Source: a virus
Lineage: Duplodnaviria; Caudoviricetes
Virus record (IMG/VR): IMGVR_UViG_3300032234_000470
Location: 1 to 31,309 of that record
Direction: 5' to 3' (one strand)
Length of the DNA stretch: 31,309 nt
Numbering within the stretch: the first letter of the stretch is position 1; each line of letters begins with the position of its first letter. Of the stretch, positions 1,157-31,195 are shown in pieces. A program made the translations under genes and the position numbers. Below the pieces are notes generated by a model. It was not told the origin of the DNA, did not search any database, and saw only the letters and a list, made by a program, of their open reading frames with translations.

Positions 1157-1920
1157 CGGCGTAGTCCTTTCGGCGGAGTCCATACTGTCAGGTCAGACTG
1201 CCAAAGCCATCGGTCACCGATGCGGTGGATAATCCAAGCCTTCCAATTGTTGCCGGAAAACCACCCGGCGATGAAGCCGTTATTCCACCGAGCAGTCCCG
1301 AGGTAGTTCGCGGCGTATTCCATGTCGTCGATTCTGCAGAGGCATGGGGCCATGTATGCCGCGCCTCCGCCATGCTTAGGGAGGTTGACCTGATGCCCGG
1401 TGTGGCCGTGGCCGCACATAAACAGTCCACCTTCGGTCGCGTAGTGCATGCCAAGCTTCGCAAGGTTGCTTCCGATTCCGTGGTGAGACGAGATTGGGCC
1501 AATGCGTAACAGGCCGCGCTTGCCGTGGTAAGGCAGGATTCGCTTTACGCCGGATTTGCGGGCCTCGCGGTCAATCTTAGATTCCAAATCGGAGCAGTAG
1601 TCTCTCACGACGGCGGAAGGGTGCGACCGGGCCATCGCTGAAAGGCGATACTCATGGTTTCCCTTGTGGTAGTAGGTCGGGCGAAACTTGCGAAGGAAGT
1701 CCACCCCGGCTTCGACATCCTCCTTCAAGGACTCGGCTCCCTCGGTGTCGGACATCGCGCCTTTGCGAAGCGAGCGCATGTCAAAATGGTCGCCTCCGGC
1801 GATGCGGATGTCCGGCTTGAAGTCGGCGCAGTATGCGTAAAGCGCGGCGAGGCTTTCGGCATCCGCCATGTCTCCGTGGGTGTCGGAAGCGAATACGAAC
1901 TTGGTAGGTTTGGTGGTCAT
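1153..1920 (-). CDS. calcineurin-like metallophosphoesterase
   Basis: Motifs SDTHG, GGDHFD, GNHE, HHG and GHGH occur in canonical order. Confidence 0.9.
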   Translation of the reverse strand: MTTKPTKFVFASDTHGDMADAESLAALYAYCADFKPDIRIAGGDHFDMRSLRKGAMSDTEGAESLKEDVEAGVDFLRKFRPTYYHKGNHEYRLSAMARSHPSAVVRDYCSDLESKIDREARKSGVKRILPYHGKRGLLRIGPISSHHGIGSNLAKLGMHYATEGGLFMCGHGHTGHQVNLPKHGGGAAYMAPCLCRIDDMEYAANYLGTARWNNGFIAGWFSGNNWKAWIIHRIGDRWLWQSDLTVWTPPKGLRR

Positions 1921-2264
1921 TGGTCAAGCTGGCTCTTTTCCGGCGGGAAAAGGTTGTAGACTTTCTGCGGACCGGGGGGAGGAGGGTATGCGGAGCGTTT
2001 TGGAAATGGGATTCCAAACGAAGCAAGCTTCTCGCTGGTAAATCCCATCATCTCTGCCGTGTCGGCGAATCCGATTCCGAGGCGGAAGGCTTCGCGGACT
2101 AGAACCGACTCGTCGTATGGTTGAACCTTGTCCTTGTCCTTGAACTCGCAAGCCACGATGAATTTTGCGCGGGCCGGGGAGATTCCAAGTATCTCGCATC
2201 GTTCAGCGAAAGTAAGAGGACGATTGCGGTTGTTCTCGCAGACCATGTCATCTTCAGATGCCAA
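1917..2264 (-). CDS. hypothetical protein, possible HTH DNA-binding protein
   Basis: LTFAERCEILGISPARAK and FADTAEMMGFTSEKL are HTH-like; overlaps both neighbours. Confidence 0.5.
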   Translation of the reverse strand: MASEDDMVCENNRNRPLTFAERCEILGISPARAKFIVACEFKDKDKVQPYDESVLVREAFRLGIGFADTAEMMGFTSEKLASFGIPFPKRSAYPPPPGPQKVYNLFPPEKSQLDQ

Positions 2265-2844
2265 GTTTGCGGGCCAAGTCCTTGCCTTCGTTCAGGATTC
2301 GCTGGCGAGAGTCAGGGAGGAAAATGTATTCATGGTCAAAGGCGACCTGACGGGTGATTAGTCCGATGGACTTGCCCTCCTCCTCGTTAGCCGCCTCGAC
2401 CCCGGTTGTCCTGACCATGACCTTATGGAGCTTCCAATCCTGCGCGCCGACGAGCATGTTCTCAATTACCTCAAGCTCGTTGATGTATCGCCAATCGGAA
2501 CAGATGATGGTCGTCCCGATTCCGATGCTGTTGTTGCACCGGGCGATGAGCTGGCATTGGCGCGTGAAAGCGAGGGCGAAGACGTCCTCGTTGATTGAGC
2601 GAGCGAACACCCCGGCGGATACTAGGAAATGCCTGTGCCTAACCTTGAAGGATTCGTTCCTGAAAGTCTGGGTCGCTCCTGAGCCGCCGATGCCGAGCGA
2701 CTGCATGTAGGAGTCGCAAGCTTGCTTAAGCACGTCGGCGAAGTTCAGGTGGACGACCGGGCCGCTCGCGACGAGGGAAACTCCGTCCGCGAGGGTGTCC
2801 TTACCCGCACGAGCATACCCTGTGATTAGGATTACATTGTTCAT
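2254..2844 (-). CDS. deoxynucleoside monophosphate kinase-like P-loop protein
   Basis: ITGYARAGKDT Walker A, FADVLK, and ISDWRYINE-type motif (CSDWRYINE). Confidence 0.8.
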   Translation of the reverse strand: MNNVILITGYARAGKDTLADGVSLVASGPVVHLNFADVLKQACDSYMQSLGIGGSGATQTFRNESFKVRHRHFLVSAGVFARSINEDVFALAFTRQCQLIARCNNSIGIGTTIICSDWRYINELEVIENMLVGAQDWKLHKVMVRTTGVEAANEEEGKSIGLITRQVAFDHEYIFLPDSRQRILNEGKDLARKLGI

Positions 2845-2865
2845 GCGAGTAAGGACGGCCCTTGG

Positions 2866-3351
2866 TTAGAACGGAACGGACTCCCCGGCCTCGGACGAGA
2901 AGGACTCAGGCACATCGGACGCGCCGTTGCCCTTGTAGCCGACAGCTTCGACCGGGGTAATCTTGGTGAGCTTGTAGTTGAACTGCATCTTGCCGTTCCA
3001 TTCCTCGTCCGGCGTGGCTTCGATTTCGATGGTGGCTTTCTTGCCGAACGCCGGGGAGACGAACCTGATGAGGTTGTCCACAGTCATGGAGGTGGGCGGC
3101 TCCGGCGTGAAGCTCCCGGTGAGCTTGCCGACCAGCATCGCGAGGCCTTTGCCAAACTCGACGGAGTAATTCTTGGTCATGCAGTTGCCGTCGCCGTCCA
3201 CGAAGAACAGGCGGCAGGAGGCGAAGCCCTTCTTGTTGACCTTGAAGCGTTCCAGCATCTTGTCATCCTTGGGCTTGACCAGCTTGAGGATGTAGGTGCC
3301 GGACTTCTCGATGTTCTTGAGAGGCGGGAGTTCGTTGTTGGGAGGGTTCAT
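2866..3351 (-). CDS. putative single-stranded DNA-binding protein
   Basis: Follows the ERF and exonuclease genes; beta-rich; acidic C-terminal tail ending ESVPF; start MNPPNNEL after an A/C-rich leader. Confidence 0.55.
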   Translation of the reverse strand: MNPPNNELPPLKNIEKSGTYILKLVKPKDDKMLERFKVNKKGFASCRLFFVDGDGNCMTKNYSVEFGKGLAMLVGKLTGSFTPEPPTSMTVDNLIRFVSPAFGKKATIEIEATPDEEWNGKMQFNYKLTKITPVEAVGYKGNGASDVPESFSSEAGESVPF

Positions 3352-5383: not shown

Positions 5384-5964
5384 TTGGAGATTGCCTTGAG
5401 GAAGGCGGATTGGTTCTCGGTGATGATGAGCTGGTGTTCGTTGCTCAAGCTGGCGAGGCTGTGTCCTTCAGCAAGCCACCCTTTGGACACAAGGTAGGCT
5501 TGGGCTTTGTCAATCTTATCCGGCGGGATGAAGCCAAACCAGACATCCGGGCGAGACGCGGGCCGGGGAGCCGGGGAGGAGGCCTTCGCTCCGTCGTCGT
5601 CGATGTCCGTGGAGATACCACAGGCGGTTTGGAGCGATTGGCGGCGGAGGTAGGTAATTGCGCTCCCGAGCTTCTGTGCGTCGCCCGGTGCGACGAAGGA
5701 GAGGGTTCCGCTGTCGTGAGACTCGCCCGACGCGTGGAGGAAGGTGGTCGTGACGCGAACCTGACCCTCTGCCGAGGACAGGCTTTGGTGGACGGCGAGG
5801 TTATGCTCACGGGCCACAGCTTTTACTGTGTCCAGAATCTCCGAGAGCGAGGCGTATCTGGACTTATAGGCCGGGTTGATGCGGTCGGCGGAGACGTTGC
5901 CGATGGCGTTGAGGAAGGCGACCAAGTCTTGGCGCGCCGTGTTGGGTTGGTTGTCTTTGGGCAT
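5380..5964 (-). CDS. ERF-family single-strand annealing recombinase
   Basis: NPAYKSRYASLSEIL, TTFLHASGE, QKLGSAITYLRR and DIDDDG signature motifs. Confidence 0.92.
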   Translation of the reverse strand: MPKDNQPNTARQDLVAFLNAIGNVSADRINPAYKSRYASLSEILDTVKAVAREHNLAVHQSLSSAEGQVRVTTTFLHASGESHDSGTLSFVAPGDAQKLGSAITYLRRQSLQTACGISTDIDDDGAKASSPAPRPASRPDVWFGFIPPDKIDKAQAYLVSKGWLAEGHSLASLSNEHQLIITENQSAFLKAISK

Positions 5965-5979
5965 GGTGGTTGGTGGAAA

Positions 5980-6444
5980 TTAGTTGATGGCCTTACGAAG
6001 ACCAGCGTCAAGGATTAAGAGTGCGTCCGCCGTAGCGAGCGTGACATGATTGTCCGGGTAAAGCTCTGAGGCGCGGGCCTTCAGCTTGTTCTTCCATTGG
6101 GTTGTGGTCTGCTCGCCTTTCGTCCCGACCGGGTGGGCCTTCTGCCAGACCGGAGGGCGCACCGGGTGAATCTTGAAGCCGAGGGCGACGGCGGCTCCGT
6201 AGCAGATGCCGTAGTTGAGCATCATCTTGCCGATGGCCGAGCCGGGGATGTTGCGGCCCGCGAACAACGGCGGAAGCTCGATGTAGAGTTCAACGATGTC
6301 AGACCCCTTCGCGACATTCGCGAGCAGGGTGCAAGTGTCAAAGTCAGTCGGCGGCATGCGGAGCGCGGTCGTCTTGCCGTTGAAGTGCCAAGCGATGCCT
6401 CCGTTTACGCCGGGGTCGATTGCGATAGTAAGGATGTCGTTCAT
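5980..6444 (-). CDS. RuvC-like Holliday junction resolvase
   Basis: IAIDPGVNGGIA, YIE, PPVWQK and ADALLI RNase H-fold motifs. Confidence 0.85.
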   Translation of the reverse strand: MNDILTIAIDPGVNGGIAWHFNGKTTALRMPPTDFDTCTLLANVAKGSDIVELYIELPPLFAGRNIPGSAIGKMMLNYGICYGAAVALGFKIHPVRPPVWQKAHPVGTKGEQTTTQWKNKLKARASELYPDNHVTLATADALLILDAGLRKAIN

Positions 6445-6716
6445 GGCTGTGCCTTGAGAGTCTGAAGCTCGTTACGCAAGGTCAAGGCCGAACCATCGGA
6501 CAGGGAAGCCAAGGTAGTGAATCGTTCCTGCTCAATGTATAGGCGACCGACCTCAGAGAAACGGAGGTGTGCGTGAGCCGGGTCAGCGGCGACCTCCTTC
6601 ATCGCGGCGAGAAGCTTGCCACGGGAATCCCGCGCCCTCTCGCGGAATGCCCTTGCCTCAGAGCGCGTGGCCTTGAGGATGGCTTTGAGGTTGGCGATGC
6701 GGTGTTTGGTTTCCAT
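6441..6716 (-). CDS. hypothetical early protein
   Basis: Start METKHRI; its stop overlaps the RuvC ATG. Confidence 0.6.
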   Translation of the reverse strand: METKHRIANLKAILKATRSEARAFRERARDSRGKLLAAMKEVAADPAHAHLRFSEVGRLYIEQERFTTLASLSDGSALTLRNELQTLKAQP

Positions 6717-6724
6717 GTGAGGGA

Positions 6725-6979
6725 TTATTCGCACTCCTCGCCGTTGATGCATTCCAGCATGGTGTGGACTTCGTCGCCGAACGCGAGGAGAGAGGCGTAA
6801 CGCTCAAGAGCATCAGCCGTGTCCGATGCCCGGCGATACTTCGCGCTCCCGGCCTTGGCGTTGTTGCGTTCGGCAACCTTGTCGAGCCAGCGTTCGTGAA
6901 GGTCAGTCACCGTGTCGATGATGTCCCATGCGTCGTATTCTTTTTCGAGGGCCGCGATGATAGTTTCTTGTGTGGTCAT
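6725..6979 (-). CDS. hypothetical early protein
   Basis: Start MTTQET preceded by the repeated leader ACAAACGACC. Confidence 0.65.
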   Translation of the reverse strand: MTTQETIIAALEKEYDAWDIIDTVTDLHERWLDKVAERNNAKAGSAKYRRASDTADALERYASLLAFGDEVHTMLECINGEECE

Positions 6980-6999
6980 GGTCGTTTGTTGGTGAGGGT

Positions 7000-7254
7000 T
7001 CAACCCTGAGGGCGATTGTTGATGCCGACCTTGGTGATGACGGCGAGGTTCTGGGTGATGAGCTGGTCGCGGAGCTTGCCGAGCTTGCTCTTTGCGAGCT
7101 TGCGCTGGACAGAGCCAAGCGGGGAGTCGATGACTTGCAGGAACCAGAACGCATAGGAGCGTTTGGTTTCGGCGAGCGTACCCTCCTTATGGAGAAGGTC
7201 GAAGTCCCGGTTCGCGAGGATGGCGTTGATGCGGTCTGAGGTGTTGGCGGTCAT
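7000..7254 (-). CDS. hypothetical early protein
   Basis: Start MTANTS preceded by the same repeated leader. Confidence 0.65.
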   Translation of the reverse strand: MTANTSDRINAILANRDFDLLHKEGTLAETKRSYAFWFLQVIDSPLGSVQRKLAKSKLGKLRDQLITQNLAVITKVGINNRPQG

Positions 7255-7276
7255 GGTCGTTTGTGGGTGAGAGTGA

Positions 7277-7486
7277 TTACTTGGCGGCGAGAGCGGCTTC
7301 GTAGGCGGAATAGGCGGCTTCGTAGGCGGCGAAAGCAACAGAAAGCTCGCATCCGCTAACAAATCTTCCCTGAGAAGAAGAATCGTAGGCGGCAGAGTTG
7401 GCGCGAGCCAACTTAACAGCTTCGGCGGCGGAGTTAAGCGCGGCGAGCGCGGAGTTCATTGAGGACTTTTCGTTGGTGGTATTCAT
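7277..7486 (-). CDS. Ala-rich small early protein
   Basis: First gene after early promoter copy 1; AAYEAAYSAYEAA repeats. Confidence 0.6.
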   Translation of the reverse strand: MNTTNEKSSMNSALAALNSAAEAVKLARANSAAYDSSSQGRFVSGCELSVAFAAYEAAYSAYEAALAAK

Positions 7487-7494
7487 TGGTGGTG

Positions 7495-7563
7495 TTTGGT
7501 GGAACGAGAGTAAAGTTGGCCGAAAGGGGTCTGGGTGACAAGGTTTATTTTCGGAAATCGCAC
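7495..7563 (-). promoter_or_regulatory. repeated early promoter, copy 1
   Basis: AAAATAAACC-TTGTCA(7541-7536)-N17-CAACTT(7518-7513)-TACTCTCGTTCCACCAAA; conserved with copies 2 and 3. Confidence 0.75.
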
Positions 7564-7991
7564 GGGAGGGTTTGCCGAATAGATACGACCCTTTTGGCGT
7601 AATCGGTCAGGGGAAGCCCATTACGAATCGCTCCGCCCGGCCCCAGATTCCAGCATGCGGCCAGCTGGGCGTCGGTCGGGTAAGGGTAGCCCGCGCCTCG
7701 GAGCCGGGTGCGGATGACTTCAAGATACGCGCTCGCCATGTATTTCTGGACTGCGGAATCCCGCCATGCGTGACGCTTGTAAGTTCTGCGGCCTTGCGAC
7801 TTGAGGAGTGCGTTCGCATCCTGCCAAGCTTCCGGGTGCATCTGATACGCACCAAGCGCACGACCTCCGTCCCCTACGGCGAAGTGGTCCAATCGTGACT
7901 CAACGATTCCGATTGCCATAAGCAACATCTCATCCGATGCCTCAAGCCCGGCACAGGCAATCATCGAGTAAAGTGTGAGTGCGAGTCTCAT
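7545..7991 (-). CDS. lytic transglycosylase / lysozyme-like protein with N-terminal hydrophobic segment
   Basis: AIGIVES (catalytic Glu), AVGDGGRALGAYQM and WNLGPG. Confidence 0.85.
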   Translation of the reverse strand: MRLALTLYSMIACAGLEASDEMLLMAIGIVESRLDHFAVGDGGRALGAYQMHPEAWQDANALLKSQGRRTYKRHAWRDSAVQKYMASAYLEVIRTRLRGAGYPYPTDAQLAACWNLGPGGAIRNGLPLTDYAKRVVSIRQTLPCDFRK

Positions 7992-8692
7992 CTGAGGTTG
8001 AGCAGGATTTCATCCGGGCGGCGCGGATTGTCTTTGATGGCCTTGCCCCATTTCTTCTTGAGGTAGGCGATGCACTCGCGCTCAAGCTCCGAGGTGCGGT
8101 AGGAAACAGCACCACCCTTGTTGGAGCGATGAGCAAACTCCGCAAGGATGTTGTCAACGCGCAGGACGCGTCCGAAAGCCTCGATGTGCCGCAGGGTGTA
8201 ATCGTAGTCTTCTTTGAGGCGCATCTTCTCGTCGAACCGGATGTCGCAAGGGAACACCAGAATCATGTCTCCGACGATGAAGGCCCGGTCGCGGTAAGGC
8301 TTCTCCGGATTGTAGAAGTAGGGGTTGGAAGTCGGGGCGACTCCGCACAGCTTGGCTCCGAACTTCTGCCCGGCAGTCAGCATGTCGCGGGCCGCAGAGA
8401 TGAGCTTGACCTGTTCGGTGTCCGTTTTGCTATGGGCTTTCTTGACGCGCTTCAGGTCGTCGGACAGTTGGAGGCAGGGGAGGCCAAGGGCGAACGCGGC
8501 TTCAAGTGCGGCGTTGCGGCTCTCGCACAGCTTGCCGGACTCCACGACATTCTTTGCCCCGGCGGCGCGGTAAGCGTCCCCTTCCCCGGCGGCGACGAAC
8601 CAAGTAGCGTCGGCGACGTGCGCGTTCATCGCCGGAACCCGGTCAGGGCGGCGCGCGCTGATGATGGAGACGAAGATGTTGTTATTATTCAT
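7988..8692 (-). CDS. TET-associated (TAGT/JGT/GREB1-like) GT-A DNA-base glycosyltransferase
   Basis: IISARR, SRNAAL, LQLSDDL, LCGVAP, RFDEKMRLKEDYDYTL and NKGGA follow the motif order of TAGT/base-J glucosyltransferases. Confidence 0.82.
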   Translation of the reverse strand: MNNNNIFVSIISARRPDRVPAMNAHVADATWFVAAGEGDAYRAAGAKNVVESGKLCESRNAALEAAFALGLPCLQLSDDLKRVKKAHSKTDTEQVKLISAARDMLTAGQKFGAKLCGVAPTSNPYFYNPEKPYRDRAFIVGDMILVFPCDIRFDEKMRLKEDYDYTLRHIEAFGRVLRVDNILAEFAHRSNKGGAVSYRTSELERECIAYLKKKWGKAIKDNPRRPDEILLNLR

Positions 8693-8695
8693 GGG

Positions 8696-9064
8696 TCAAT
8701 CACGCTGGGGGCGAGAGTAGTCGTCGTCAAGCCGGATGACGTCCGTAAGGTCGGGAGTGGACACTTCAAGGAGGACGCTATCCTCCGCCGCCTCAAAACG
8801 ATGCAGGGTCGTTGCAGGGATGTGGACAGCGCGGCCCGGTAGCCATTCCATCTGGCTGTCCCTTGCCCCGTAGGTCAGGATGACCCGGCCCGACAGGAGG
8901 TAAAGCGTCTCTACCTTGCGCTCATGGTATTGCAGGGACAGTCGTTTGCCCCGGCTGACTTCAAGGAGCTTCCCGGCGTATTGGGTCTGGTCGGCATACC
9001 AGATTTCGCGGCCCCATGGCTTGACGACAATCTTGGGTTGGTAGGTAGGGTCTGGTAGGTGCAT
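8696..9064 (-). CDS. cupin, mannose-6-phosphate isomerase-like
   Basis: KPWGREIW, YAGKLL, LSLQYHERKVETLY, HIPATTLHRF and EVSTPDLTDVIRLDDDY. Confidence 0.85.
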   Translation of the reverse strand: MHLPDPTYQPKIVVKPWGREIWYADQTQYAGKLLEVSRGKRLSLQYHERKVETLYLLSGRVILTYGARDSQMEWLPGRAVHIPATTLHRFEAAEDSVLLEVSTPDLTDVIRLDDDYSRPQRD

Positions 9065-9069
9065 AAGGG

Positions 9070-9357
9070 TCAAGGGAGGAAACGGCGCGGAACCATCGAC
9101 CCAACGATTGGGCCATCAGTAGGAGCGTCGTAGGAATAGGTTATGCCTACCCAGCCGCCAGCCGCAACATAAGGTTCAATGCGAACCTCGCGGCATCCGG
9201 CCCGGTCGTAGGCATCAGCATAGAGGTCGCACAGCTTTCGGCATCGTGGTAGCGCGGTCTTGTTGGAGCAGATGTCCCCGGCCTCGATGCGGTCGTTGAC
9301 CTCAGACACATCCGCCATCAGGTGACGGAAAACGAAATGATGAGCCTGAGCGTTCAT
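9070..9357 (-). CDS. hypothetical early protein
   Basis: Start MNAQAHHF in an ATGA overlap with the upstream stop. Confidence 0.6.
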   Translation of the reverse strand: MNAQAHHFVFRHLMADVSEVNDRIEAGDICSNKTALPRCRKLCDLYADAYDRAGCREVRIEPYVAAGGWVGITYSYDAPTDGPIVGSMVPRRFLP

Positions 9358-9587
9358 TGGTATTCGACGACGCAATCCGGGCAGACCCAGAAGCTTCCGC
9401 GCATCACGGAGATGGTGGACGGGGACTTGCGGTTGTAGTAGATTGCCTTGACCTCGTAGCGTTCCCCGGCGAGGCGGTCGCCGCAACACGGGCAAGGTCG
9501 CCAAGTGAACTCGTCCCGGCTTGGGTATCCGTTCGCGTCGGTGATGGTTTCGAGACGCTCAAGGTTTCGGTGCAGGAGGTTGCTCAT
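9354..9587 (-). CDS. small zinc-finger-like protein
   Basis: CPCC...CPDC. Confidence 0.7.
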   Translation of the reverse strand: MSNLLHRNLERLETITDANGYPSRDEFTWRPCPCCGDRLAGERYEVKAIYYNRKSPSTISVMRGSFWVCPDCVVEYQ

Positions 9588-9598
9588 TGGTTGTGGAA

Positions 9599-9928
9599 TT
9601 AGTGGCCGGAGGATTCGAAGAAGTCATACATCAGGTCGCGAGCATACTTGTCCCAATCAAAGTAAAGCTCGCAAGGGTGGGTATGTCGCCCGTGCTTGGG
9701 GAGGTCGCCGAACAGGTCGGTCGCGTCGGCAAGCTCGTAGGCGAAGTCCCGGTCGCTCCGGTGTTCGCCGTAGTAGCTGTCGGACGCGTTCTCCAAGTCG
9801 CTCAGGGTCGGCTCGGTAATGCCGAGGTGTTCGCAGTAGGCGACCATGGCTTCCGGCTTGAGGCTGATGTCCTTGTGGGGATACAGCTCCGCGACGAGCG
9901 CGTGGAGGTCTTTTGATTTCTTAGGCAT
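9599..9928 (-). CDS. ardA: ArdA-like antirestriction (DNA mimic) protein, short form
   Basis: Acidic; DSYYGEHRSDRDFAYEL and YFDWDKYARDL match the ArdA middle and C-terminal domains. Confidence 0.75.
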   Translation of the reverse strand: MPKKSKDLHALVAELYPHKDISLKPEAMVAYCEHLGITEPTLSDLENASDSYYGEHRSDRDFAYELADATDLFGDLPKHGRHTHPCELYFDWDKYARDLMYDFFESSGH

Positions 9929-9937
9929 GGAAGTGGG

Positions 9938-10075
9938 TCAGCGATGGCGGCGGACGACCTTGGCTTTGACAGGCTCCGGGCCGTTGATGAGGCGGTAGAG
10001 TTCCGGGCCGCAGAAGGTCACGACCGCGAGCCATCCGAAGATGGCGATGGCGAACAGGGTGGCCATGGCTTTCAT
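9938..10075 (-). CDS. 45-aa membrane protein
   Basis: Hand translation MKAMATLFAIAIFGWLAVVTFCGPELYRLINGPEPVKAKVVRRHR; fills the gap between neighbours. Confidence 0.6.
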   Translation of the reverse strand: MKAMATLFAIAIFGWLAVVTFCGPELYRLINGPEPVKAKVVRRHR

Positions 10076-10094
10076 GTCGGGAAGCTTGCGAGGG

Positions 10095-10322
10095 TTAGCC
10101 GCGGGGAGACTCGCCGATGATGTAGCCGAAGTCGTCGCGGATGGCGCGGGCCAGCTCGACGAGCTTGAGGTCGCAAGCCGGGACGCGCTTGTGGTCGGCC
10201 TTGAGCGCGGCGCGGAACGCCGAGATGACGGAGACGAGCGTCGTGTTGTCGTGGCCCGGCGCGCCGTAGAGCTTCGCGAGGGTCGTGCCGACGATGATGG
10301 TTGTGATGCTGATGCTGTTCAT
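10095..10322 (-). CDS. hypothetical early protein
   Basis: Preceded by the 21-bp repeated junction element. Confidence 0.65.
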   Translation of the reverse strand: MNSISITTIIVGTTLAKLYGAPGHDNTTLVSVISAFRAALKADHKRVPACDLKLVELARAIRDDFGYIIGESPRG

Positions 10323-10349
10323 TGTTGTGATGTTTGTGGGTGAGAGTGA

Positions 10350-10550
10350 TTAGGCGTTGACCGGGCCGACATCGGCGAGGAACTGCTTGACCCCGGCGAG
10401 GGTGTATTCGCTACCGGAGGTCTGGCCGTTTCCGTTTTCGGTGGCGAAGCCGGGCTTAAGGTTAATCCAGTAAATCTTTCGACCGAAGTCCGATTCGATT
10501 TCGATGTTCTGGACAGCCGGGTGATTGTTGAGCTTTTCGAGGGTGGTCAT
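10350..10550 (-). CDS. hypothetical early protein
   Basis: First gene after early promoter copy 2. Confidence 0.7.
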   Translation of the reverse strand: MTTLEKLNNHPAVQNIEIESDFGRKIYWINLKPGFATENGNGQTSGSEYTLAGVKQFLADVGPVNA

Positions 10551-10562
10551 TTGTATGTTGGG

Positions 10563-10636
10563 TTTGGTGGAACGAGAGTAACCTTGCCCGATGAACCGAC
10601 CGGGCGAAAGGTTTATTTTCGGGTCGAGTGCGATTT
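10563..10636 (-). promoter_or_regulatory. repeated early promoter, copy 2
   Basis: AAAATAAACC-TTTCGC-N17-CAAGGT-TACTCTCGTTCCACCAAA. Confidence 0.75.
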
Positions 10637-10691
10637 AGGGGTTTGGTCGATACAGTATCGGTTTAGGCCGGGCTTCCGGGAGGCCTGTTTT

Positions 10692-10721
10692 ACCCCTCTG
10701 GCAAGCCCGTGGAGGCCTTTT
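10692..10721 (+). repeat. 30-bp dispersed intergenic element, copy A
   Basis: ACCCCTCTGGCAAGCCCGTGGAGGCCTTTT; 27/30 identical to the reverse complement of 22388-22417. Confidence 0.8.
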
Positions 10722-10755
10722 AAGGCCCGGCGCGGCCCAACCCTAAGGCCGGAGG

Positions 10756-10935
10756 TCACAGAAAGCCTCCTTCGGCTATGGCCCGGAGTTGCTCGTATCC
10801 TCGGCATGCGGCCCCATTAGTCAGGTAAAGGCCCGGCTCGCGTTCGACAGATTCAATCAGCTCGGCAAGCTTGTCCTCGTCCTGCGGAATCTCAGCCAGC
10901 CCGTGAAGCACCGACATGATGTAGTTGGGACTCAT
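10756..10935 (-). CDS. 59-aa hypothetical protein
   Basis: Hand translation MSPNYIMSVLHGLAEIPQDEDKLAELIESVEREPG...; TGATG overlap with the upstream stop. Confidence 0.55.
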   Translation of the reverse strand: MSPNYIMSVLHGLAEIPQDEDKLAELIESVEREPGLYLTNGAACRGYEQLRAIAEGGFL

Positions 10936-11141
10936 CAGGAGTGGGTGTAGCCGTCCGGCTCGATGACCATGTACATGACCATGCCGGACTGCCCGACCAC
11001 GCGGATGGCGATGGCGCGTTCCGCCGGGAGGTGCGTGAGGTCGTTGAAGTCGAGCGTCCAGCCACGGGTCTGTAGCTTGGACAGCCCGACGAGCTGGTCA
11101 CGGGTGAGCGTGAAGGTCTGTGCGGTCTTGGGAGGGTGCAT
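10935..11141 (-). CDS. hypothetical early protein
   Basis: Start MHPPKT; ends IEPDGYTHS. Confidence 0.65.
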   Translation of the reverse strand: MHPPKTAQTFTLTRDQLVGLSKLQTRGWTLDFNDLTHLPAERAIAIRVVGQSGMVMYMVIEPDGYTHS

Positions 11142-11145
11142 GGGA

Positions 11146-11415
11146 TTAAAGATTGGCGAGGAGGGCGGTGACATGTTCGCGGGCCGCGTCAGGCGCGTCG
11201 CTGTCAGGATGCTGGAGGTCTTCTGCGGCAAGGGTGAGGGATTCCTTAATGGTCTGTCCCTTAGCGATGCGTAGCGAGAATCTGTCGCCGTAGGTCAGGT
11301 CGCATTCCGGGCGACCGAGGGACTTGTGGAAGGCTTCCATCGTGCGGACTCCGCTTGGGTCATTGCCCATCAGCATGGAGATGCCGGGTCGCCCGGTAGT
11401 TTCGAGGTTATACAT
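11146..11415 (-). CDS. hypothetical early protein
   Basis: Start MYNLETT after an A/C-rich leader. Confidence 0.6.
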   Translation of the reverse strand: MYNLETTGRPGISMLMGNDPSGVRTMEAFHKSLGRPECDLTYGDRFSLRIAKGQTIKESLTLAAEDLQHPDSDAPDAAREHVTALLANL

Positions 11416-11440
11416 TGGTTGTATTGGGTTGGGTGAGAGA

Positions 11441-11743
11441 TTACTTGGCGAAGACCATCGCCCACAGCTGGTCGGCGCGGGCCTTGGTGATGACGGGCTT
11501 GATGCCGGACTTCTCGTTGGCGAGGATTTCGCAACCGATGATGTGCCGGGCAACCTTGGCCTTGTCGAAGTAGGACATGGTGTTGCGGGCATACCAGAGG
11601 CAGACGGAGCGCGTCGTAGAGTCGGCCTCGTCCCAGCTGACGGGGAGCGCGTCCGGGACAGTCAGCCCGGCATCCCGGTTGGTGCTGACGAGGATTCGCT
11701 CGTCGTGGTCGAGGGCGGTGATGGGCTTGAACGGGGTGGTCAT
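11441..11743 (-). CDS. hypothetical early protein
   Basis: Repeated leader ACAAACGACCATGACC. Confidence 0.7.
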   Translation of the reverse strand: MTTPFKPITALDHDERILVSTNRDAGLTVPDALPVSWDEADSTTRSVCLWYARNTMSYFDKAKVARHIIGCEILANEKSGIKPVITKARADQLWAMVFAK

Positions 11744-11776
11744 GGTCGTTTGTGGTGTTGGTTTTTGAAAGGTTTA

Positions 11777-12064
11777 TTAGGCGGTAATCAGGCCCATCTT
11801 GATGGCCTTCTTGCGGCACTTCGTGCAGGTGATATCGCTGAAGGAGTAGTTGCCATTGGCATGAGCACGAGCGTTGAAAGCGTCGGAGCCGCAGGTCGTG
11901 TGTAATCCGGTCTTGTGAAGCTGGCCGTCGTTCTTCTTGAACTCCATCGTGTAAATGATGTGAAGCTCAGAGCCGCGTCCGGCGCGTCCGACATTAAAAG
12001 TCCGCTTGATGTCGTGCTCGACAGTAACGAATTCTTTGTTGGTGTTGATTTCGGTGGTGGTCAT
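11777..12064 (-). CDS. hypothetical early protein, possible Zn-binding
   Basis: First gene after promoter copy 3; H...CG...ITCTKC. Confidence 0.65.
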   Translation of the reverse strand: MTTTEINTNKEFVTVEHDIKRTFNVGRAGRGSELHIIYTMEFKKNDGQLHKTGLHTTCGSDAFNARAHANGNYSFSDITCTKCRKKAIKMGLITA

Positions 12065-12075
12065 TTGTGGTGTGG

Positions 12076-12150
12076 TTTGGTGGAACGAGAACAACCTTGC
12101 CCGAACCTCCGACTCAACGAAAGGTTTATTTTGGGGTCTAAGTGCGATTT
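12076..12150 (-). promoter_or_regulatory. repeated early promoter, copy 3
   Basis: AAAATAAACC-TTTCGT-N17-CAAGGT-TGTTCTCGTTCCACCAAA. Confidence 0.75.
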
Positions 12151-12206
12151 ATGGGTTTAGCGAATACAGGCTCTACTGCGACCGAGGCCCGGCTACCCCC
12201 AAAAAG

Positions 12207-12235
12207 ACCCCTTGGGAGGCCCGTGGAGGCCTTTT
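12207..12235 (+). repeat. dispersed intergenic element, copy B
   Basis: ACCCCTTGGGAGGCCCGTGGAGGCCTTTT. Confidence 0.75.
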
Positions 12236-12258
12236 GACCCCTTACCCCTACCCTTCCC

Positions 12259-12567
12259 CTACCTTTTAGACCGACCCCGGCTCTTGAGCCAAGCCAGCCC
12301 GGCGTCCACCAGCTCCGGGGAAGCGTAGCCCGCCATCCCTGCCGCCGCATACCCAAGGCCCGCGTTCGCGAAGTAGGACTGCGTGGCGAGGCCGACCAAC
12401 AAAGAAGTCAGCCCAGCGACGGCTGTCCGGCGGGCGATGTAACCAAGGGAGTGCCTTTCAGTCGAACAAAAGTAGCGCACCATCCACGAAACCGCGCCGA
12501 TGGCGATTCCGATGCCAATGTCTCGCAAGCTTGCGGGGACTTCTTCCGGCTGTGGAACGGGACTCAT
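12259..12567 (-). CDS. putative holin
   Basis: Small; 2-3 hydrophobic segments; basic C-terminus; last gene of the late block. Confidence 0.7.
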   Translation of the reverse strand: MSPVPQPEEVPASLRDIGIGIAIGAVSWMVRYFCSTERHSLGYIARRTAVAGLTSLLVGLATQSYFANAGLGYAAAGMAGYASPELVDAGLAWLKSRGRSKR

Positions 12568-12860
12568 GTGATGCGAGGCGGCTTGTTATTCTTGTCCATA
12601 AGCACCCGGCGGTAGTTCTGCTTCCAGAGGGTGTCGCACAGCTTCTTGCCCGCGGCATCAACCAGCTTCTCTGTCGCCGGGGAAACGTCGTCAGGGAAAA
12701 GGGTGATATGAAGCACCTCGTGGCACAGCACCTCAAGCTGACGTTTCGCCCCAAGGCGCGGGTCAATCTCAATAAGAGGGCGCGCCGCATCGAAGTGCGC
12801 CTGACCCCAAGCGACCTCGCGACCCAGCTTGCGCCAGACTACCTTAATCCCCTTTGCCAT
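12564..12860 (-). CDS. small zincin-like (HEXXH) protein
   Basis: Start MAKGIKVVWRKLG; IEIDPRL...LEVLCHEVLH...E. Confidence 0.7.
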   Translation of the reverse strand: MAKGIKVVWRKLGREVAWGQAHFDAARPLIEIDPRLGAKRQLEVLCHEVLHITLFPDDVSPATEKLVDAAGKKLCDTLWKQNYRRVLMDKNNKPPRIT

Positions 12861-13548
12861 GCGAGGAGTTGACGGAATCTCGCACCTTGTCCCAAGCCCA
12901 CCAAAGGCCAAGTCCGGAAGCCGCGGATGCTGTGCCGATGGCAAGCCACATGAAGTAAGGCGAGTCCACGATGAAGGGGACTGCTCCACAGAACGCGCCG
13001 CAAAGAAGAAGGGGGATGCCGATACGCGGCCCGGCCAGAGCCGTAGCCAACGCGCCGATGACCGCCAGCCCGGCTCCGGTCAGCGTCCAGATGTTTTCGG
13101 AGGCCTCTCGCTTTACCCGCTCAAGCTCCCCGGTGAGGTCGGCGATACGCTCGTCCTTCAACTTGGAAACACGGGAGGCTTCCTTCTGGTCTGCCTCCAT
13201 CTTGGAGCGCGCTTCGGTGACTTGGGCGGCGAGCTTCCGGGCGGCTTCCTCTGCGGCCTTGTAGTCCTTCTGGTCGGCCTTGGCGGCACGAGCCTTAGCC
13301 ACGGCGAGGTCGCCCTCGTTCGGGGCCGGGAGGAGGGCCAAGGCGACGGACGACTCGGCGCGGACGACTTCGGGCTTGTCGGCGTTATCCTTCACGACGG
13401 TGACTGCGGCCGCAACTTTGTTGTTCCTCGTGTCGATTCCGGACGAGAAAGTAGACATGTTCTCGGAACGCGTCGGCGCGTCCGGTTGAGGCGGAAGCTT
13501 CGACGAAGAACAGCCGACCAAAAGAATGGAGGCCGCGAGCAGGCGCAT
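12844..13548 (-). CDS. lipoprotein with coiled coil and C-terminal TM helices (spanin candidate)
   Basis: MRLLAASILLVGC lipobox; helical periplasmic region; hydrophobic C-terminal segments. Confidence 0.6.
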   Translation of the reverse strand: MRLLAASILLVGCSSSKLPPQPDAPTRSENMSTFSSGIDTRNNKVAAAVTVVKDNADKPEVVRAESSVALALLPAPNEGDLAVAKARAAKADQKDYKAAEEAARKLAAQVTEARSKMEADQKEASRVSKLKDERIADLTGELERVKREASENIWTLTGAGLAVIGALATALAGPRIGIPLLLCGAFCGAVPFIVDSPYFMWLAIGTASAASGLGLWWAWDKVRDSVNSSHGKGD

Positions 13549-23942: not shown

Positions 23943-23957
23943 CTACGCGGGAGTCAA
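23943..23957 (-). promoter_or_regulatory. conserved late element, copy 4
   Basis: Exact 15-mer; contains the TGA stop of the S49 gene. Confidence 0.85.
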
Positions 23958-25360
23958 GCGACTCCCTTGGAGCGGTTCTTTTTGACCGAACCCTTGTTGT
24001 GCTTGGAGTCCGTCTCGACAGCTTTCTCGCCGGAGTCATTCTCGTCATCCGCGTCGTCCTTGGACTTGTCCTCGTCGGGCTTGTCCTCGCCGTCCGGCTG
24101 AGGTTCGGTACCCTCGTCGTCCTCGGATTTCTTCTCGTCTTCTTCGTCCTCGGATTCGGGCTTCTCGTCGTCGTCAGACTTGGACTCGGGCTTTTCCTCT
24201 TCGTCCTCCTCCTTCGGCTCCTCGTCGTCGCCTTCGGACTTCTTTTCGTCCTCTTCTTCCTCGTCCTTGGGCTTGTCTTCGTCGTCAGACTTGGACTTCT
24301 TTTCCTCGTCTTCGTCTTCGGATTTCTTTTCTTCGTCCTCGTCTTCAGACTTCTTGTCCTCGTCTTCGTCCTCGGCGGACAGCTTAATCTTCAGGCCGGA
24401 GAGGGCGCGGGAAGCCGCAGTAGCCCGAAGCTTCTTGAGGGCCATGGCCTCTTCTTCTTCGCCATCCTCTTCGGAGGAAGCACCCATCTCGTCTCCGTGA
24501 CGCTTGTCGTTTTCCTCGTCGGACTCGACCTGAGCAAACACAGCGGCATCAAGCTCCTTGAGCATTTCGTCAAAGCCATTGGTCAGGGACGTAACAAGCC
24601 CGGCTTCCGCGCCGCGCTTGCCGGAGAACATCTGGCCTTCCATCGAGCTGTCCTCGACGAAGGAACGGACGGACTTCACCGCCTCCTTGAAGTCGGCGTG
24701 GATGTCCTCGACTTCCTGCTGAAGCATCTTGCGCTGGTTTTCGTCAAGAGACGTTCCGGGGATTCCCGCACCCTTGTAGGTGCCGGACTTGATGACGTCC
24801 ATCTTGACCCCTTCCATCTTGAAAGCTTCCGAGCAGTCAGGGAAGGCGATATACACGCCGATTGAGCCTACGGACGAAGAAGGGGTCGCGTAGAACTTGG
24901 AGGCCTGAGAGCCAAGCCAATAGGCCGCGGAACAGCATTCGTTGCCCGTGAAAGAGATGACCTCCTTGGAGCAATTCTTGATGCGGTTGGCGAGTTCAGG
25001 GACACCTACCGACGTGCCGCCGGGAGAGTCGATGTCAAGAATGATGGTCTTGATGGAGGTGTCGCGTTCGCACTCCTCAAGCATTTCCTCGATGTCGCGG
25101 ATGTCGCAACAGCCGCAAAGCGACTCAAGCTCGGACAGGTTCTTGCCGATGACACCCTTGACCGGGATGATGGCGAAGGGAGGGAACTTTTCGAGCGTCG
25201 GCTTCTCGCCGAAAATTGCGGAAAGCATGTCGCCCATGTCGGACATCTTCGCGTCCATGGGGATTTCCATGTCGCCGACCCGGTTGAGGTAGGCCTCAGC
25301 CTGAGCAGGCTGGATGAGGAGAGGGCGCTGGCCCTTGAAGTCCTTGGAGAGATTACGCAT
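23954..25360 (-). CDS. S49-family head maturation protease with long D/E/K tail
   Basis: LDIDSPGG, CSAAYWLGSQ, VGSIGVY and IKSGTYK; start MRNLSK overlaps the portal end. Confidence 0.92.
   Translation of the reverse strand: MRNLSKDFKGQRPLLIQPAQAEAYLNRVGDMEIPMDAKMSDMGDMLSAIFGEKPTLEKFPPFAIIPVKGVIGKNLSELESLCGCCDIRDIEEMLEECERDTSIKTIILDIDSPGGTSVGVPELANRIKNCSKEVISFTGNECCSAAYWLGSQASKFYATPSSSVGSIGVYIAFPDCSEAFKMEGVKMDVIKSGTYKGAGIPGTSLDENQRKMLQQEVEDIHADFKEAVKSVRSFVEDSSMEGQMFSGKRGAEAGLVTSLTNGFDEMLKELDAAVFAQVESDEENDKRHGDEMGASSEEDGEEEEAMALKKLRATAASRALSGLKIKLSAEDEDEDKKSEDEDEEKKSEDEDEEKKSKSDDEDKPKDEEEEDEKKSEGDDEEPKEEDEEEKPESKSDDDEKPESEDEEDEKKSEDDEGTEPQPDGEDKPDEDKSKDDADDENDSGEKAVETDSKHNKGSVKKNRSKGVA
23990..24380 (-). 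repeat. low-complexity coding repeats (KKSEDEDEE-like)
   Basis: Degenerate tandem repeats visible in both DNA and protein. Confidence 0.85.
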
Positions 25361-27336: not shown

Positions 27337-29160
27337 TCAAGCCTCCGTCTCGCCGGAAGATTCCTTTTCCTCCGGCGCAACGACGTCATCAGGCTTTCCC
27401 GTAAGCCGCCAAGCCAAGGCCGGGAGGATGCAGATGACCTCGCAATCCCAGAAGTGATTGTCCTTTGAGCCGATTTGCTCCCAGAATGGCTTTCCGTTCG
27501 TGGCGATTGTTCTCTTCTCTGACTTCATCTGGTCGCGGTATTCATCCGAGACATCCTTGGGAATCATATGCTTGCCGCGCTTGATGAGCGCCGCCAGCAC
27601 GTCTTTCAGGCGCAGATTGGAGAAGTAGAATCGCTTCACGCGCTTACTTCCGACAGCTTCGACCACCGGGGCAGAGTAAGGCCGCAGTTCCGTCTTGAGG
27701 CCGACCGGGGTCTTGACCCTCCAAGCGAACTCGTTGCGCTGGTCGCCACGGGTAGCCACCCAGCCGTTAGCCGCACATGCCTGAAGCACCTCGTCTGGCT
27801 GGTAGCCTGAGTCGATGAAGACATTGGCCGGGTGGACTTGGTATTTCTTGTGGGCCTCGGCCAGCTGTGACCAAGAGAAGCAGTAACCGCAGTCAACAAG
27901 ACGGGAGCGTCCGTCGCCAGACCATCCTCGGATGACCCAATAGAAACCGCGCTTCTGCACGTCCACTCCCATGAACCGCATGCGCACAAAATCAGGCTCG
28001 GCCCGCATTTCCGGCGTGATTAGGTGGAAGGCCGTCGGGTGTCCCTTTACGAATCCGCCCTCCTGCTCCCAATCCGCACCCATGGCGAAATCGCCCGGCG
28101 CGGCATCGGTCTTTATCTCATCCGGCTGTTCTTCGAACTTTTCTGCGAGCCGTTTTTGGATGAAGATACGCAGAGGCTCCTCGTCGCCGTATTCCTCGAT
28201 GGATTCTTTGGCTTTGATTAGCATCACGGCCAGCTCACCCCAGCTCATCGTCGCGATGCTGTTCCAATGAAGGCCGATGTAGCTTGAGTTGCTGGACGCT
28301 TTTGTTGATACGAATTTACCCGCGGCGTTGGCTTCAAGACGGGTTGCGTTGGTGTCTGGAAGCTTCGTCTTGCAGGAAACACACTCGTAGGTAGTCCCGT
28401 GCGCAACCTTGAGCAGATTCCATTCCTCATTAACCTTTGCGTCTTCCGGAAACTTTACCTGTGACCAGACCCAAGGCTGAAGATGCCCGCAGGAAGGACA
28501 GCACATATTCCAATCCCGCATGTCCGTGGACTCATGTAGCTGGTGAAACTCCTGCCCGTCTTGACCACCCTGCGACATGAAGATGCGCTTGCCCATCCAA
28601 CCGAACGCCGTCACGCGCGCGCTCGCTTCGGCCAAGTGTCCGGGCGGAGCCATCCAACACTCGTCCGCGATGACGTAACGCAACGAAAGTCGCTGAAGGT
28701 TTGTCTCGTTGTGGATTCCGCGACAATAGATTGTCATGCGGTCAAAGTCAGAAGTCGTCGAACGCTCCATGTCGTCGTTCTTGAACTTTGCTTTCACCGG
28801 CGGGCAATTGTTCCAAACCGGGCGAAGGTATCGGATAGAGAAGTCTTTAGCCTCTGCATCCGTAGCCTGAAGCACCATGGTCGGGCCGGGTTGGTTCGCG
28901 ATGACGTAGCAGGAAAACAAACGGGCGAGCAAAGATTTGCCGGACTGAATGCTGGCAAGGATTGTCAGCAAGCGCGTCTCCGGGTCAGCCGCGATGCGCA
29001 AGGCCTCGGCAATCCACGGAGTGCGCTCCGCCCGGAACGGGCCGGGCATCGGCGAGTCAGGGATGGCGTTGACGTTATCCTCAAGCCATTGAACAATGTC
29101 TCCGGAGTAGGCTGGCTTCATGACGGTCTTGCCGACCTTTATCAGTTCAGCCTTATTCAT
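27337..29160 (-). CDS. terminase large subunit, lambda gpA family
   Basis: PGPFRAERTPW, QSGKS Walker A, IADE Walker B, CPSCGH and CVSC, GVDVQ, IDSGY and NHFWDC. Confidence 0.95.
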   Translation of the reverse strand: MNKAELIKVGKTVMKPAYSGDIVQWLEDNVNAIPDSPMPGPFRAERTPWIAEALRIAADPETRLLTILASIQSGKSLLARLFSCYVIANQPGPTMVLQATDAEAKDFSIRYLRPVWNNCPPVKAKFKNDDMERSTTSDFDRMTIYCRGIHNETNLQRLSLRYVIADECWMAPPGHLAEASARVTAFGWMGKRIFMSQGGQDGQEFHQLHESTDMRDWNMCCPSCGHLQPWVWSQVKFPEDAKVNEEWNLLKVAHGTTYECVSCKTKLPDTNATRLEANAAGKFVSTKASSNSSYIGLHWNSIATMSWGELAVMLIKAKESIEEYGDEEPLRIFIQKRLAEKFEEQPDEIKTDAAPGDFAMGADWEQEGGFVKGHPTAFHLITPEMRAEPDFVRMRFMGVDVQKRGFYWVIRGWSGDGRSRLVDCGYCFSWSQLAEAHKKYQVHPANVFIDSGYQPDEVLQACAANGWVATRGDQRNEFAWRVKTPVGLKTELRPYSAPVVEAVGSKRVKRFYFSNLRLKDVLAALIKRGKHMIPKDVSDEYRDQMKSEKRTIATNGKPFWEQIGSKDNHFWDCEVICILPALAWRLTGKPDDVVAPEEKESSGETEA

Positions 29161-29749
29161 CCTTTGAAAGCTCCGTGCGGATTCTCAGCGACCAAGCCTC
29201 AAGAGCCTTAACCGCCTTTGCCGGGTTCTCCGGGTTGCATGCCTCGGCGACGTCCAAGGCCAGCTTGTCTAATCTGTTAACGAATTCACTCGCAAGCTTC
29301 CGCATGGCTTCCGACGCATCGGAGGCCCGGATGTATTCCCGGTTCATCAGCGCGAGCCTGTCCGCCTCTGCCTTCAACTTGGTGAGGGTGTTGACGGTCT
29401 TATCGTAGGACGCGTAGAGCCGGGACTGCTGAGGGGAGCCGGACTTGACCGCCTTGATGTATTGGTTGCGCGAAATCTGAACAAGGATGCGCTGTCTCTC
29501 TACGATGGAGTCGAAGGTCTCCAGCACAGTCTGTGGAGCCTTTTCTTCGACCTCCTCGGCGGGTTCCTCCCCCGGTGCGGCATCGAGCTTGTAATCGCCC
29601 GGTGCGATGCCTGTCGTCAGGTGGCGTTGCGCCCTCCACTTCTCCGCCTCCTCAACGCTGTCCAGCGGCATCCCCTCAGACACAAGCTGGGAGATGCGGC
29701 CCGGAGAAAGCTCCCACCTTTCGGCGAGCGTCTTTTGGCTGACGGCCAT
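29153..29749 (-). CDS. terminase small subunit, Nu1-like
   Basis: N-terminal HTH SQKTLAERWELSPGRISQLVSEGMP; overlaps the large subunit start. Confidence 0.85.
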   Translation of the reverse strand: MAVSQKTLAERWELSPGRISQLVSEGMPLDSVEEAEKWRAQRHLTTGIAPGDYKLDAAPGEEPAEEVEEKAPQTVLETFDSIVERQRILVQISRNQYIKAVKSGSPQQSRLYASYDKTVNTLTKLKAEADRLALMNREYIRASDASEAMRKLASEFVNRLDKLALDVAEACNPENPAKAVKALEAWSLRIRTELSKDE

Positions 29750-30570: not shown

Positions 30571-31195
30571 TGGATTCCAGAAGATGGTTAACGACCTCAG
30601 CGTTGTTTGCAAGGCCGAACTTGTCGGCGTAGTCCGCGAGCGCGTCAATGACCGCGTTGTATTCCTCCATGCCGTAAACGAGGATAATCTGCCGAATGAT
30701 GGATTTGTCGTAGTCACCCTTGCGCTCGCTGATGCTCTTGCCGCGCTCCTCGCCGTCAGAGGTCAACTGCTCTACGTCACCCACATCGGTGATGAGATAA
30801 CCAAGGTCACTTTCGTCGAAGCCGATGAGCGACAGGTCGATTTCCCCGGCCTCCTGAATGGCAAGCAGTTCGGCCTTCAGGATGTCCGCGTCCCACCCGG
30901 CGTTCAGGGCAAGCTTGTTGTCCGCAAGCACATAGGCGCGCATCTGCGAGGGAGACAGGTGACTGAGAGTAATAGTCGGCACCTCAGTCATGCCAAGTTT
31001 AGTAGCCGCCGCAAGTCTGCCATGCCCGGCGATGACAGTTAAATCTTCTTGGATGAGGATGGGGTTGTTAAACCCAAACTCCTCGATGGATTTTGCAAGC
31101 TGTGCGACTTGCTCCTCGGAGTGCGTTCGCGCGTTGTTGGCATAGGGTTTGAGTGACGCGACTGCGGTGATTTTGATTTCGAATTTCTGGCTCAT
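30530..31195 (-). CDS. ParB/Srx N-terminal domain protein
   Basis: LKPYANNARTH, SIEEFGFNNPILI, IAGHGRLAAA and ADNKLALNAGWD; no methylase domain fused. Confidence 0.9.
   Translation of the reverse strand: MSQKFEIKITAVASLKPYANNARTHSEEQVAQLAKSIEEFGFNNPILIQEDLTVIAGHGRLAAATKLGMTEVPTITLSHLSPSQMRAYVLADNKLALNAGWDADILKAELLAIQEAGEIDLSLIGFDESDLGYLITDVGDVEQLTSDGEERGKSISERKGDYDKSIIRQIILVYGMEEYNAVIDALADYADKFGLANNAEVVNHLLESNGYQVNTRQVQGD

Follow-up and report, generated by a model that had tools for sequence, protein, structure and literature searches.

ParB-linked TET dioxygenases of phages oxidise thymine to 5-hydroxymethyluracil (5hmU), and one ParB-dependent enzyme, 5mYOX176, also oxidises 5-methylcytosine (5mC) in vitro (PMC13229309). 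As described there, the ParB-dependent subclass is linked to adjacent genes for GATases, P-loop kinases and AADTs, and glycosyltransferases mainly to a ParB-independent clade. PF18751 is the label that O'Toole et al. 2026 give to the P-loop kinase of ParB-TET clusters (PMC13229309); such kinases add a phosphate to 5hmU in DNA, and a modular gene pool has been proposed for thymidine hypermodification pathways (PMC8989533). The phage GT-A glycosyltransferases reported as tested in PMC8256090 and the Pyle preprint (bioRxiv 10.1101/2023.12.21.572611) are encoded alongside a C5-methyltransferase in gene clusters and have 5-hydroxymethylcytosine (5hmC) as their substrate, and the preprint describes a motif that they share with JGT, R...DDD...EDY/F. 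The mining of TET pathways described in these sources has covered 5-10 genes around TET (PMC8256090, PMC13229309, Pyle preprint).

We analyzed a 31,309-nt virus contig (the window) from a lambda-like tailed phage, in which every gene annotated here lies on the minus strand. From the right end, the genes run ParB-N, TET, the terminase subunits TerS and TerL, portal, head and tail genes, and holin, followed by small accessory genes, ArdA, a cupin, a glycosyltransferase (GT_A) and an SLT-like gene, and then by resolvase, ERF, exonuclease VIII, dNMP kinase, phosphoesterase and, at the left end, a cut helicase gene. The features needed below are these:

31253 to 31263, minus strand: cos-like 11-nt site, 58 nt upstream of ParB
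30530 to 31195, minus strand: ParB-N protein overlapping the TET start (ParB_N, E 1.3e-6), predicted TET activator
29749 to 30570, minus strand: TET/JBP dioxygenase, 273 aa (Tet_JBP, E 3.2e-15, above cut-off), predicted first step (T to 5hmU)
29153 to 29749, minus strand: terminase small subunit, directly after TET (phrog_57, E 6e-11)
10561 to 10625, minus strand: repeated intergenic element, with copies at 7493-7557 and 12074-12138 and a partial copy at 11767-11785
9599 to 9928, minus strand: ArdA-like anti-restriction protein in the gene run of GT_A (ArdA, E 4e-7)
9070 to 9357, minus strand: conserved 95-aa ORF with no Pfam or PHROG match, upstream flank of a variable slot
8696 to 9064, minus strand: cupin of the mannose-6-phosphate-isomerase type, 122 aa (Cupin_2 1e-7, MannoseP_isomer 8e-7, Atlas score 0.98)
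7988 to 8692, minus strand: GT-A glycosyltransferase of the TAGT/JGT-like group (GT_A), 234 aa (Pfam, PHROG, AF2 model), predicted second step
7545 to 7991, minus strand: SLT-like transglycosylase, downstream flank of the slot (SLT, E 0.0042)

The sequence-only reading had set a base-J-type glycosyltransferase, in a cassette with ArdA, 21 kb from a TET in the packaging operon. TET indeed lies between ParB and TerS/TerL, its stop overlapping the TerS start, and ArdA does belong to the gene run of GT_A, which is tightly packed (gaps of -4, -4, 5, 3 and -4) and ends with a 4-nt overlap between the GT_A stop and the start of the SLT-like gene. The distance holds on the linear record (21,056 nt, or 21.1 kb) but not round the circle. 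A sibling record, L045, which matches the window at 98% in ParB and at 100% over the 62 TET residues that it contains, spans both window ends with 3,172 nt extra between them, so the genome measures about 34.5 kb and the two genes lie about 11.9 kb, or 25 ORFs, apart round the circle. The extra 3,172 nt hold the remainder of the helicase gene and five ORFs, of which one is a pyrimidine-dimer glycosylase and none a methyltransferase. The 11-nt site upstream of ParB is likely cos, the physical genome end; the same 11 nt form the last letters of L130 and the first letters of L012, and at the matching place L260, L266, L267, L268, L145 and L282 end and L016 and L167 begin. On that reading, the packaged chromosome would begin with the ParB and TET genes. 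The TET genes of this lineage are monophyletic (support 99/95), which suggests vertical descent.

The ParB-TET locus resembles 5mYOX clade C1 as described in PMC13229309: ParB-N abuts Tet_JBP, no C5-methyltransferase is adjacent, and the pair is linked to terminase. TET carries the motif H168-x-D170...H219...R233 and a tail beyond C247; this tail after the last conserved Cys, and a ParB C-terminal block, are similar to those of clade C1 in a comparison by eye with the published sequences, our TET tree being built from the loci gathered in this analysis. Unlike clade C1, the window has no tailoring gene next to TET (no adjoining kinase, AADT or GATase gene occurs in the window), and the presumptive partner lies about 25 genes off and varies among siblings. 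The prediction that neighborhood-based mining would miss such a pairing is supported by the supplementary information of O'Toole 2026, where 10 CDS were taken on each side of a match (PMC13229309). Since mining reaches only 5-10 genes, a distant partner may exist for other orphan-looking TETs, and counts of partners would be too low. One apparently orphan TET is seen in L019/G004, a 32-kb record with ParB-TET directly before terminase and no TAGT or GT_A match; a protein with a PAPS-reductase-domain Pfam match precedes the pair (L019:4967-5863).

The glycosyltransferase ORF encodes 234 aa conserved among relatives, and the GT-A motifs first read from it are all present (SRN at 58, SDD at 77, KEDYD at 160 and NKGG at 191). 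Residues R59, N60, S77, D78, D79, K160-Y163, N191, G193 and G194 are invariant in an alignment of 120 relatives out of the 472 found. A TAGT profile search had been proposed as a check on the family; TAGT (PF20691) is the only Pfam family that GT_A matches, but at E 0.0042 and 17.5 bits the match stays under the gathering cut-off of 27.5. Three relatives (L046, P0101 and P0119) clear that cut-off with 30.5-37.3 bits, and TAGT is matched at E<=0.01 by 87 of the 120 relatives, none of which matches another Pfam family. The TAGT family was reportedly defined by Iyer et al. in 2013. PHROG 842 (beta-glucosyl-HMC-alpha-glucosyltransferase) matches GT_A at 1e-8, whereas an NCBIfam search with GT_A and TET gave no match. 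The AF2 model has a pLDDT of 95.6, and its comparison with solved structures returned GT-A folds (best Z 13.8, rmsd 3.3-3.7 over 188-203 residues), from which the GT-A fold can be assigned to the model with confidence; the acceptor cannot be read from the fold. The GT alignment found nothing meaningful among the sequences of solved structures (best E 0.18). The TAGT/JGT family call of the sequence-only reading is supported. The protein is basic (pI 9.2) and has no hydrophobic segment.

In its GT-A fold, its R...xDD...EDY pattern and the family-wide adjacency to TET described below, GT_A is like the 5mYOX-associated GT-A enzymes of phages (PF20691; PMC8256090; Pyle preprint). It differs from the tested ones in being remote from TET, in falling below the Pfam cut-off, in its cupin neighbor and in having SDD for DDD; the motif reads R59...S77-D78-D79...E161-D162-Y163, with Ser replacing the first Asp across the whole subfamily. 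The predicted chemistry is also like that of kinetoplastid base J (JBP1/2 and JGT), namely hydroxylation of thymine in DNA followed by GT-A sugar transfer, the differences being the phage setting and the predicted ParB activator.

Among relatives, the genes for the two steps usually stand together. Outside the lineage, TET lies within 3 kb of the glycosyltransferase at 73 of 82 loci and at 8.3 kb in one more, and after clustering at 90% identity within 3 kb in 55 of 61 clusters; these calls come from profiles built with sequences gathered in this analysis, and the three outside-locus TET calls that were scanned also match Pfam Tet_JBP. The proposed check of co-occurrence thus supports the pairing, although carriage of the gene independently of TET, named beforehand as evidence against it, does occur at the remaining 8 of the 82 loci. 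Five of these records were searched whole, two of them complete, and none has Tet_JBP; three of the five carry radical SAM genes. In L060, L064 and L077, GT_A relatives stand beside radical SAM genes with no TET, and L064 further contains two ParB genes, another glycosyltransferase and an FkbM methylase. GT_A matches in cellular genomes number five, three with TET close by, one on a 1.9-kb contig, and the fifth at a locus with ParB and two TAGTs before terminase. The nearest outside glycosyltransferase, that of L046 (62% identity), belongs to an unbroken ParB-TET-GT run with terminase-like ORFs after it, and the L046 TET is the best-scoring match to the window TET among 74 loci. Across these 74 loci, similarity to the window's glycosyltransferase and similarity to its TET do not correlate (rho 0.06); no co-evolution is seen, which fits modular shuffling.

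Comparison with sibling phages shows that the place occupied by the cupin and GT_A is an exchangeable slot, flanked by the 95-aa ORF and the SLT-like gene, which adjoin directly in empty-slot relatives. G001, a complete relative of 36,192 nt (identity of 90% in TerL and 77% in TET, with a median of 81% for the proteins of 44 genes), lacks GT_A and matches TAGT nowhere; between the same flanking genes it carries an ORF of 88 aa and a P-loop kinase of 176 aa (L122:10302-10832). This kinase-type slot is common to G001, G006, L131 and L132. The slot kinase (P0123) has no PF18751 match at E<=0.1, but relatives at 34-44% identity do match, down to 1e-11, and PF18751 (Ploopntkinase3, 5-HMUDK) is annotated on 11 of 35 kinase relatives; an alignment of the kinase against the sequences of solved structures gave generic P-loop matches only. 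TET lies within 3 kb at 62 of 76 loci of kinase relatives, and an amino acid:DNA transferase is also present at the three such loci checked. A third occupant, found in L127 and L135, is a different TAGT (GT_B, at 2481-3281 in L127; Pfam 1e-6) at most 24% identical to GT_A, and the best matches of GT_B among the loci of this analysis adjoin TETs. L127 and L135 are fragments lacking the terminase region, and no TET is shown on the same contig. The cupin accompanies GT_A in 3 of 3 siblings, is missing from the kinase and GT_B slots, and also occurs near TET and a glycosyltransferase in the outside loci L047, L055, L056 and L057. A larger cluster in L047 (7167-12066) comprises TET, a ParB-like gene, a 424-aa ORF, a GT_A relative, a radical SAM/SPASM gene and a window-type cupin, and it is seen in L055, L056 and L057 as well.

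Occupancy of the slot follows the presence of TET. Each of the four TET genomes whose slot can be seen has a partner gene in it (the window; G002 and L130, two records abutting at both junctions and counted as one genome; G001; and G006), a count that leaves out the TET-bearing L017 and L018, in whose records the slot is not included. By contrast, none of eight TET-less relatives that are at least 90% complete (G007-G010, G013, G014, G016, G017) has the cupin and GT_A, GT_B or the kinase in its slot, TET absence being called with a profile that did find TET in G001 and G006; G019 and G020 (without Tet_JBP, slot not seen) and G011, G012, G015 and G018 (<90% complete) were left out of the eight. 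The TET-less slots are empty in G007-G010 and G016, hold short filler in G013 and G017, and hold a C5-methyltransferase in G014. Records with a filled slot form one clade (support 96 in a tree of RuvC, ERF and SLT), so they are not independent, and the contrast in presence and absence amounts to about one event, partly a matter of shared ancestry. The weight of the slot evidence lies instead in three acquisitions made separately, every one of them drawn from a family associated with TET. In distant relatives the slot contains a C5-methyltransferase (L281), a short methylase-like gene (L301) or filler ORFs (L280, L310); it is therefore a general hot spot, and the position of GT_A may reflect recombination there. 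A gene of about 286 aa resembling a PAPS-reductase domain is found sporadically (L001:4050-4910, L003:8506-9366, L129, L280, L301, L324), not in the window.

The two groups also differ in GATC content. Counts are 1, 0, 0 and 0 in four genomes with TET and a filled slot versus 317, 432, 207 and 56 in TET-less ones, and GATC is near-absent from the TET-bearing and filled-slot records of the lineage (the whole window, L011-L018, L127, L131, L135 and others); every empty-slot record counted has many, and the outside TET phages L046, L019 and L020 keep theirs. The missing GATC circumstantially places the GT_B records with the TET phages. The loss likely reflects a common host with a GATC-recognising defence, in which case modification of thymine would give GATC no shield. 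We considered the empty-slot record L139 as the other half of the TET-bearing L018 and rejected this, as the two do not overlap and contain 39 and 0 GATC sites, respectively. The T-containing dinucleotide ratios compared showed no clear difference between four TET and four TET-less genomes.

What is observed, then, is a family, a fold, a gene layout, and a slot that in siblings holds one of three TET-associated enzymes. We consider GT_A to be a predicted DNA glycosyltransferase that probably completes a two-locus pathway with the remote ParB-TET pair, acting on thymine of the phage DNA. That GT_A and TET likely co-operate follows from close relatives carrying another transferase or a kinase in the slot of GT_A, and the idea of a remote pairing is supported by the comparison at each level, from the habit of the family to slot exchange in siblings and the four of four versus none of eight. 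In the proposed pathway, ParB, encoded with TET beside terminase, would activate TET; the pair would oxidise some thymines in phage DNA to 5hmU; GT_A would put a sugar on 5hmU, for which it would have to act on DNA, giving a base-J-like base; and the cupin may help to supply the sugar, a role in sugar supply or tailoring that its sugar-isomerase family suggests. Thymine is the likely substrate because no C5-methyltransferase occurs in the window, L045, G002 with L130, G001 or G006 and ParB-linked TETs make 5hmU, and the likely product is accordingly predicted as a base-J-like base on thymine. The split layout would have arisen most simply if the second-step genes were swapped by recombination at the accessory slot while ParB-TET was inherited vertically at the cos-like end. 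Purifying selection acts on GT_A, cupin and TET.

Where the kinase replaces GT_A, the outcome would differ. The slot occupant of G001, G006, L131 and L132 is related to the PF18751 kinases of the 5-HMUDK and AADT hypermodification pathway (PMC8989533); unlike in that pathway, no homologue of AADT, GATase or GNAT is present in G001 and G006, so modification there would go no further than phosphomethyl-uracil. The occurrence of kinase and TET without AADT in G001 and in L224 suggests phosphomethyl-uracil as an end product. The L224 locus (1386-3339) consists of a ParB-like gene, a PF18751-related kinase, TET and terminase, with no AADT match.

A glycosyltransferase working independently of TET, on a protein, the virion, a host surface polymer or a base prepared in another way, with the cupin as its sugar source, is an unlikely reading, but several observations bear on it. 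GT_A relatives without TET exist, the adjoining gene is SLT-like, and protein glycosylation has been reported for the related GREB1 domain (PMC7968844). Among solved folds, cell-surface and glycan glycosyltransferases rank best (Z up to 13.8, 9-17% identity among the top matches); against this, according to the Pyle preprint, cell-wall glycosyltransferases are also the top PDB matches of phage DNA GT-A enzymes, GT_A has no membrane segment, and its 120 relatives match no Pfam family but TAGT. The lineage itself contains TET-free TAGTs: at the pre-terminase site, G007, G008 and L249 have ParB and another TAGT but no TET (L162:8623-10342, L165:1700-3350, L249:4941-6591), and Tet_JBP is absent anywhere in G007 or G008. 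Their terminases are closer to that of the window (85-89%) than those of the TET-bearing L017 and L018 (68-74%). This TAGT is strong (Pfam 1.9e-36), yet that of G007 and G008 is not significantly similar to GT_A (E 0.7) and comes with its own ParB, of a type with a longer C-terminal domain. G009 has at this site a ParB fused to an N6/N4-methylase, which together with the ParB-TAGT pairs makes the pre-terminase site a second variable slot. Siblings fill the slot of GT_A with a TET-associated kinase or a second TAGT, and the eight TET-less genomes have none of the three. It would be quite improbable for GT_A to serve TET on cytosine instead, with 5mC from the host or a sporadic phage methylase oxidised to 5hmC and then glycosylated. 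Characterised phage GT-A enzymes do use 5hmC (PMC8256090, Pyle preprint), the ParB-dependent 5mYOX176 also accepts 5mC in vitro (PMC13229309), and C5-methylase-like genes occur sporadically in L003 (with GT_A), L127 (with GT_B) and L131 (with the kinase). The window, L045, G002 with L130, G001 and G006 nevertheless contain no C5-methyltransferase, one is found within 5 kb at only 1 of 43 related TET loci, and the alternative slot occupant is related to kinases that act on 5hmU (PMC8989533). That GT_A stands apart from its usual partner could also mark it as a decaying relic of a rearrangement, but this is contradicted by 19-30 synonymous differences versus 1 non-synonymous in comparison with each of three siblings, by which the gene is maintained, and by the retention of all invariant residues; we give such decay hardly any credence.

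The sequence-only reading went further and took the split for a timing device, with the glycosyltransferase made early from an early-type promoter at 10563-10636 and the late TET as the switch, which is compatible with the two-locus pathway on thymine. DNA would be modified just before packaging, so that bare 5hmU would never build up. ParB-TET does come first after the cos-like site, TET overlaps TerS, and GT_A lies in a packed run with ArdA behind the repeated element, upstream of the recombination and replication genes. The repeat is real (10561-10625), but it has no sigma-70 match: a scan of 5500-13000 limited to the sigma-70 consensus found 0 sites versus 1.7 expected. Moreover, the sibling L045 has a further copy (L045:1855) some 2.4 kb ahead of ParB-TET; the interval is occupied by ORFs of the same strand and shows no terminator-like site in that orientation, which counts against a temporal split with TET as its switch. 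The hot-spot nature of the slot offers another source for the layout, and since most relatives keep TET and the glycosyltransferase adjacent, the chemistry does not need separate timing. On balance we find the timing device doubtful. In one metatranscriptome, short pieces cover GT_A (7987-8138, 8291-8545) and the start of ParB (31046-31222), and they hold no information on level or time. In three runs of one study, probably of DNA, both regions are covered by a related strain, each on its own contig and to a similar depth, which is weak evidence and not independent.

A joint reading, which we put forward tentatively from these comparisons, is that a vertically inherited, packaging-linked ParB-TET pair would lay down 5hmU late, while a remote early cassette, swapped among siblings, would set whether it receives a sugar (the two transferases) or becomes a bare phosphomethyl base (the kinase, with no amino-acid transferase). 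If it holds, neighborhood mining would have missed base J in phages as well as a terminal base that is new and the switching of modification type among siblings. The chemistry is of a known kind, described from 2021 to 2026, and the split layout with an exchangeable second step appears new. No split TET/GT layout, and no demonstration of glycosylated 5hmU in phage, was found in the largely open-access literature searched. Siblings with one TET and three alternative second steps offer a ready-made set for leave-one-out and swap experiments, which bears on whether phages make glycosylated 5hmU and whether a pathway can end at phosphomethyl-uracil; as a labelling reagent, a DNA glycosyltransferase specific for 5hmU would also be useful.

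Several further features of these genomes are of interest in their own right. Another type of second step is seen beside ParB-TET before terminase in the form of a methyltransferase (L020:3400-4107, with an FkbM match, and L022:635-1318, similar by eye). In L045, a conserved ORF of 210 aa that hints weakly at a helix-turn-helix (L045:3544-4176) immediately precedes the cos-like site, and after the ORF comes a motif common to the lineage just before that site (about 31290-31303 in the window); the two are a candidate late regulator and its site. ArdA, also found in TET-less relatives, stops in the window (TAA, 9599-9601) five codons before the end of its siblings, ...YFRNQ, which may be a truncation or an assembly error. 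A host call from the terminase was tried and set aside, the best by terminase E-value of the 10 cultured phages listed, Verrucomicrobia phage P8625, being too distant at 24% identity. The S49 head protease (23954-24500 in the window) has a long, acidic, repetitive C-terminal tail, the length of which differs among strains.
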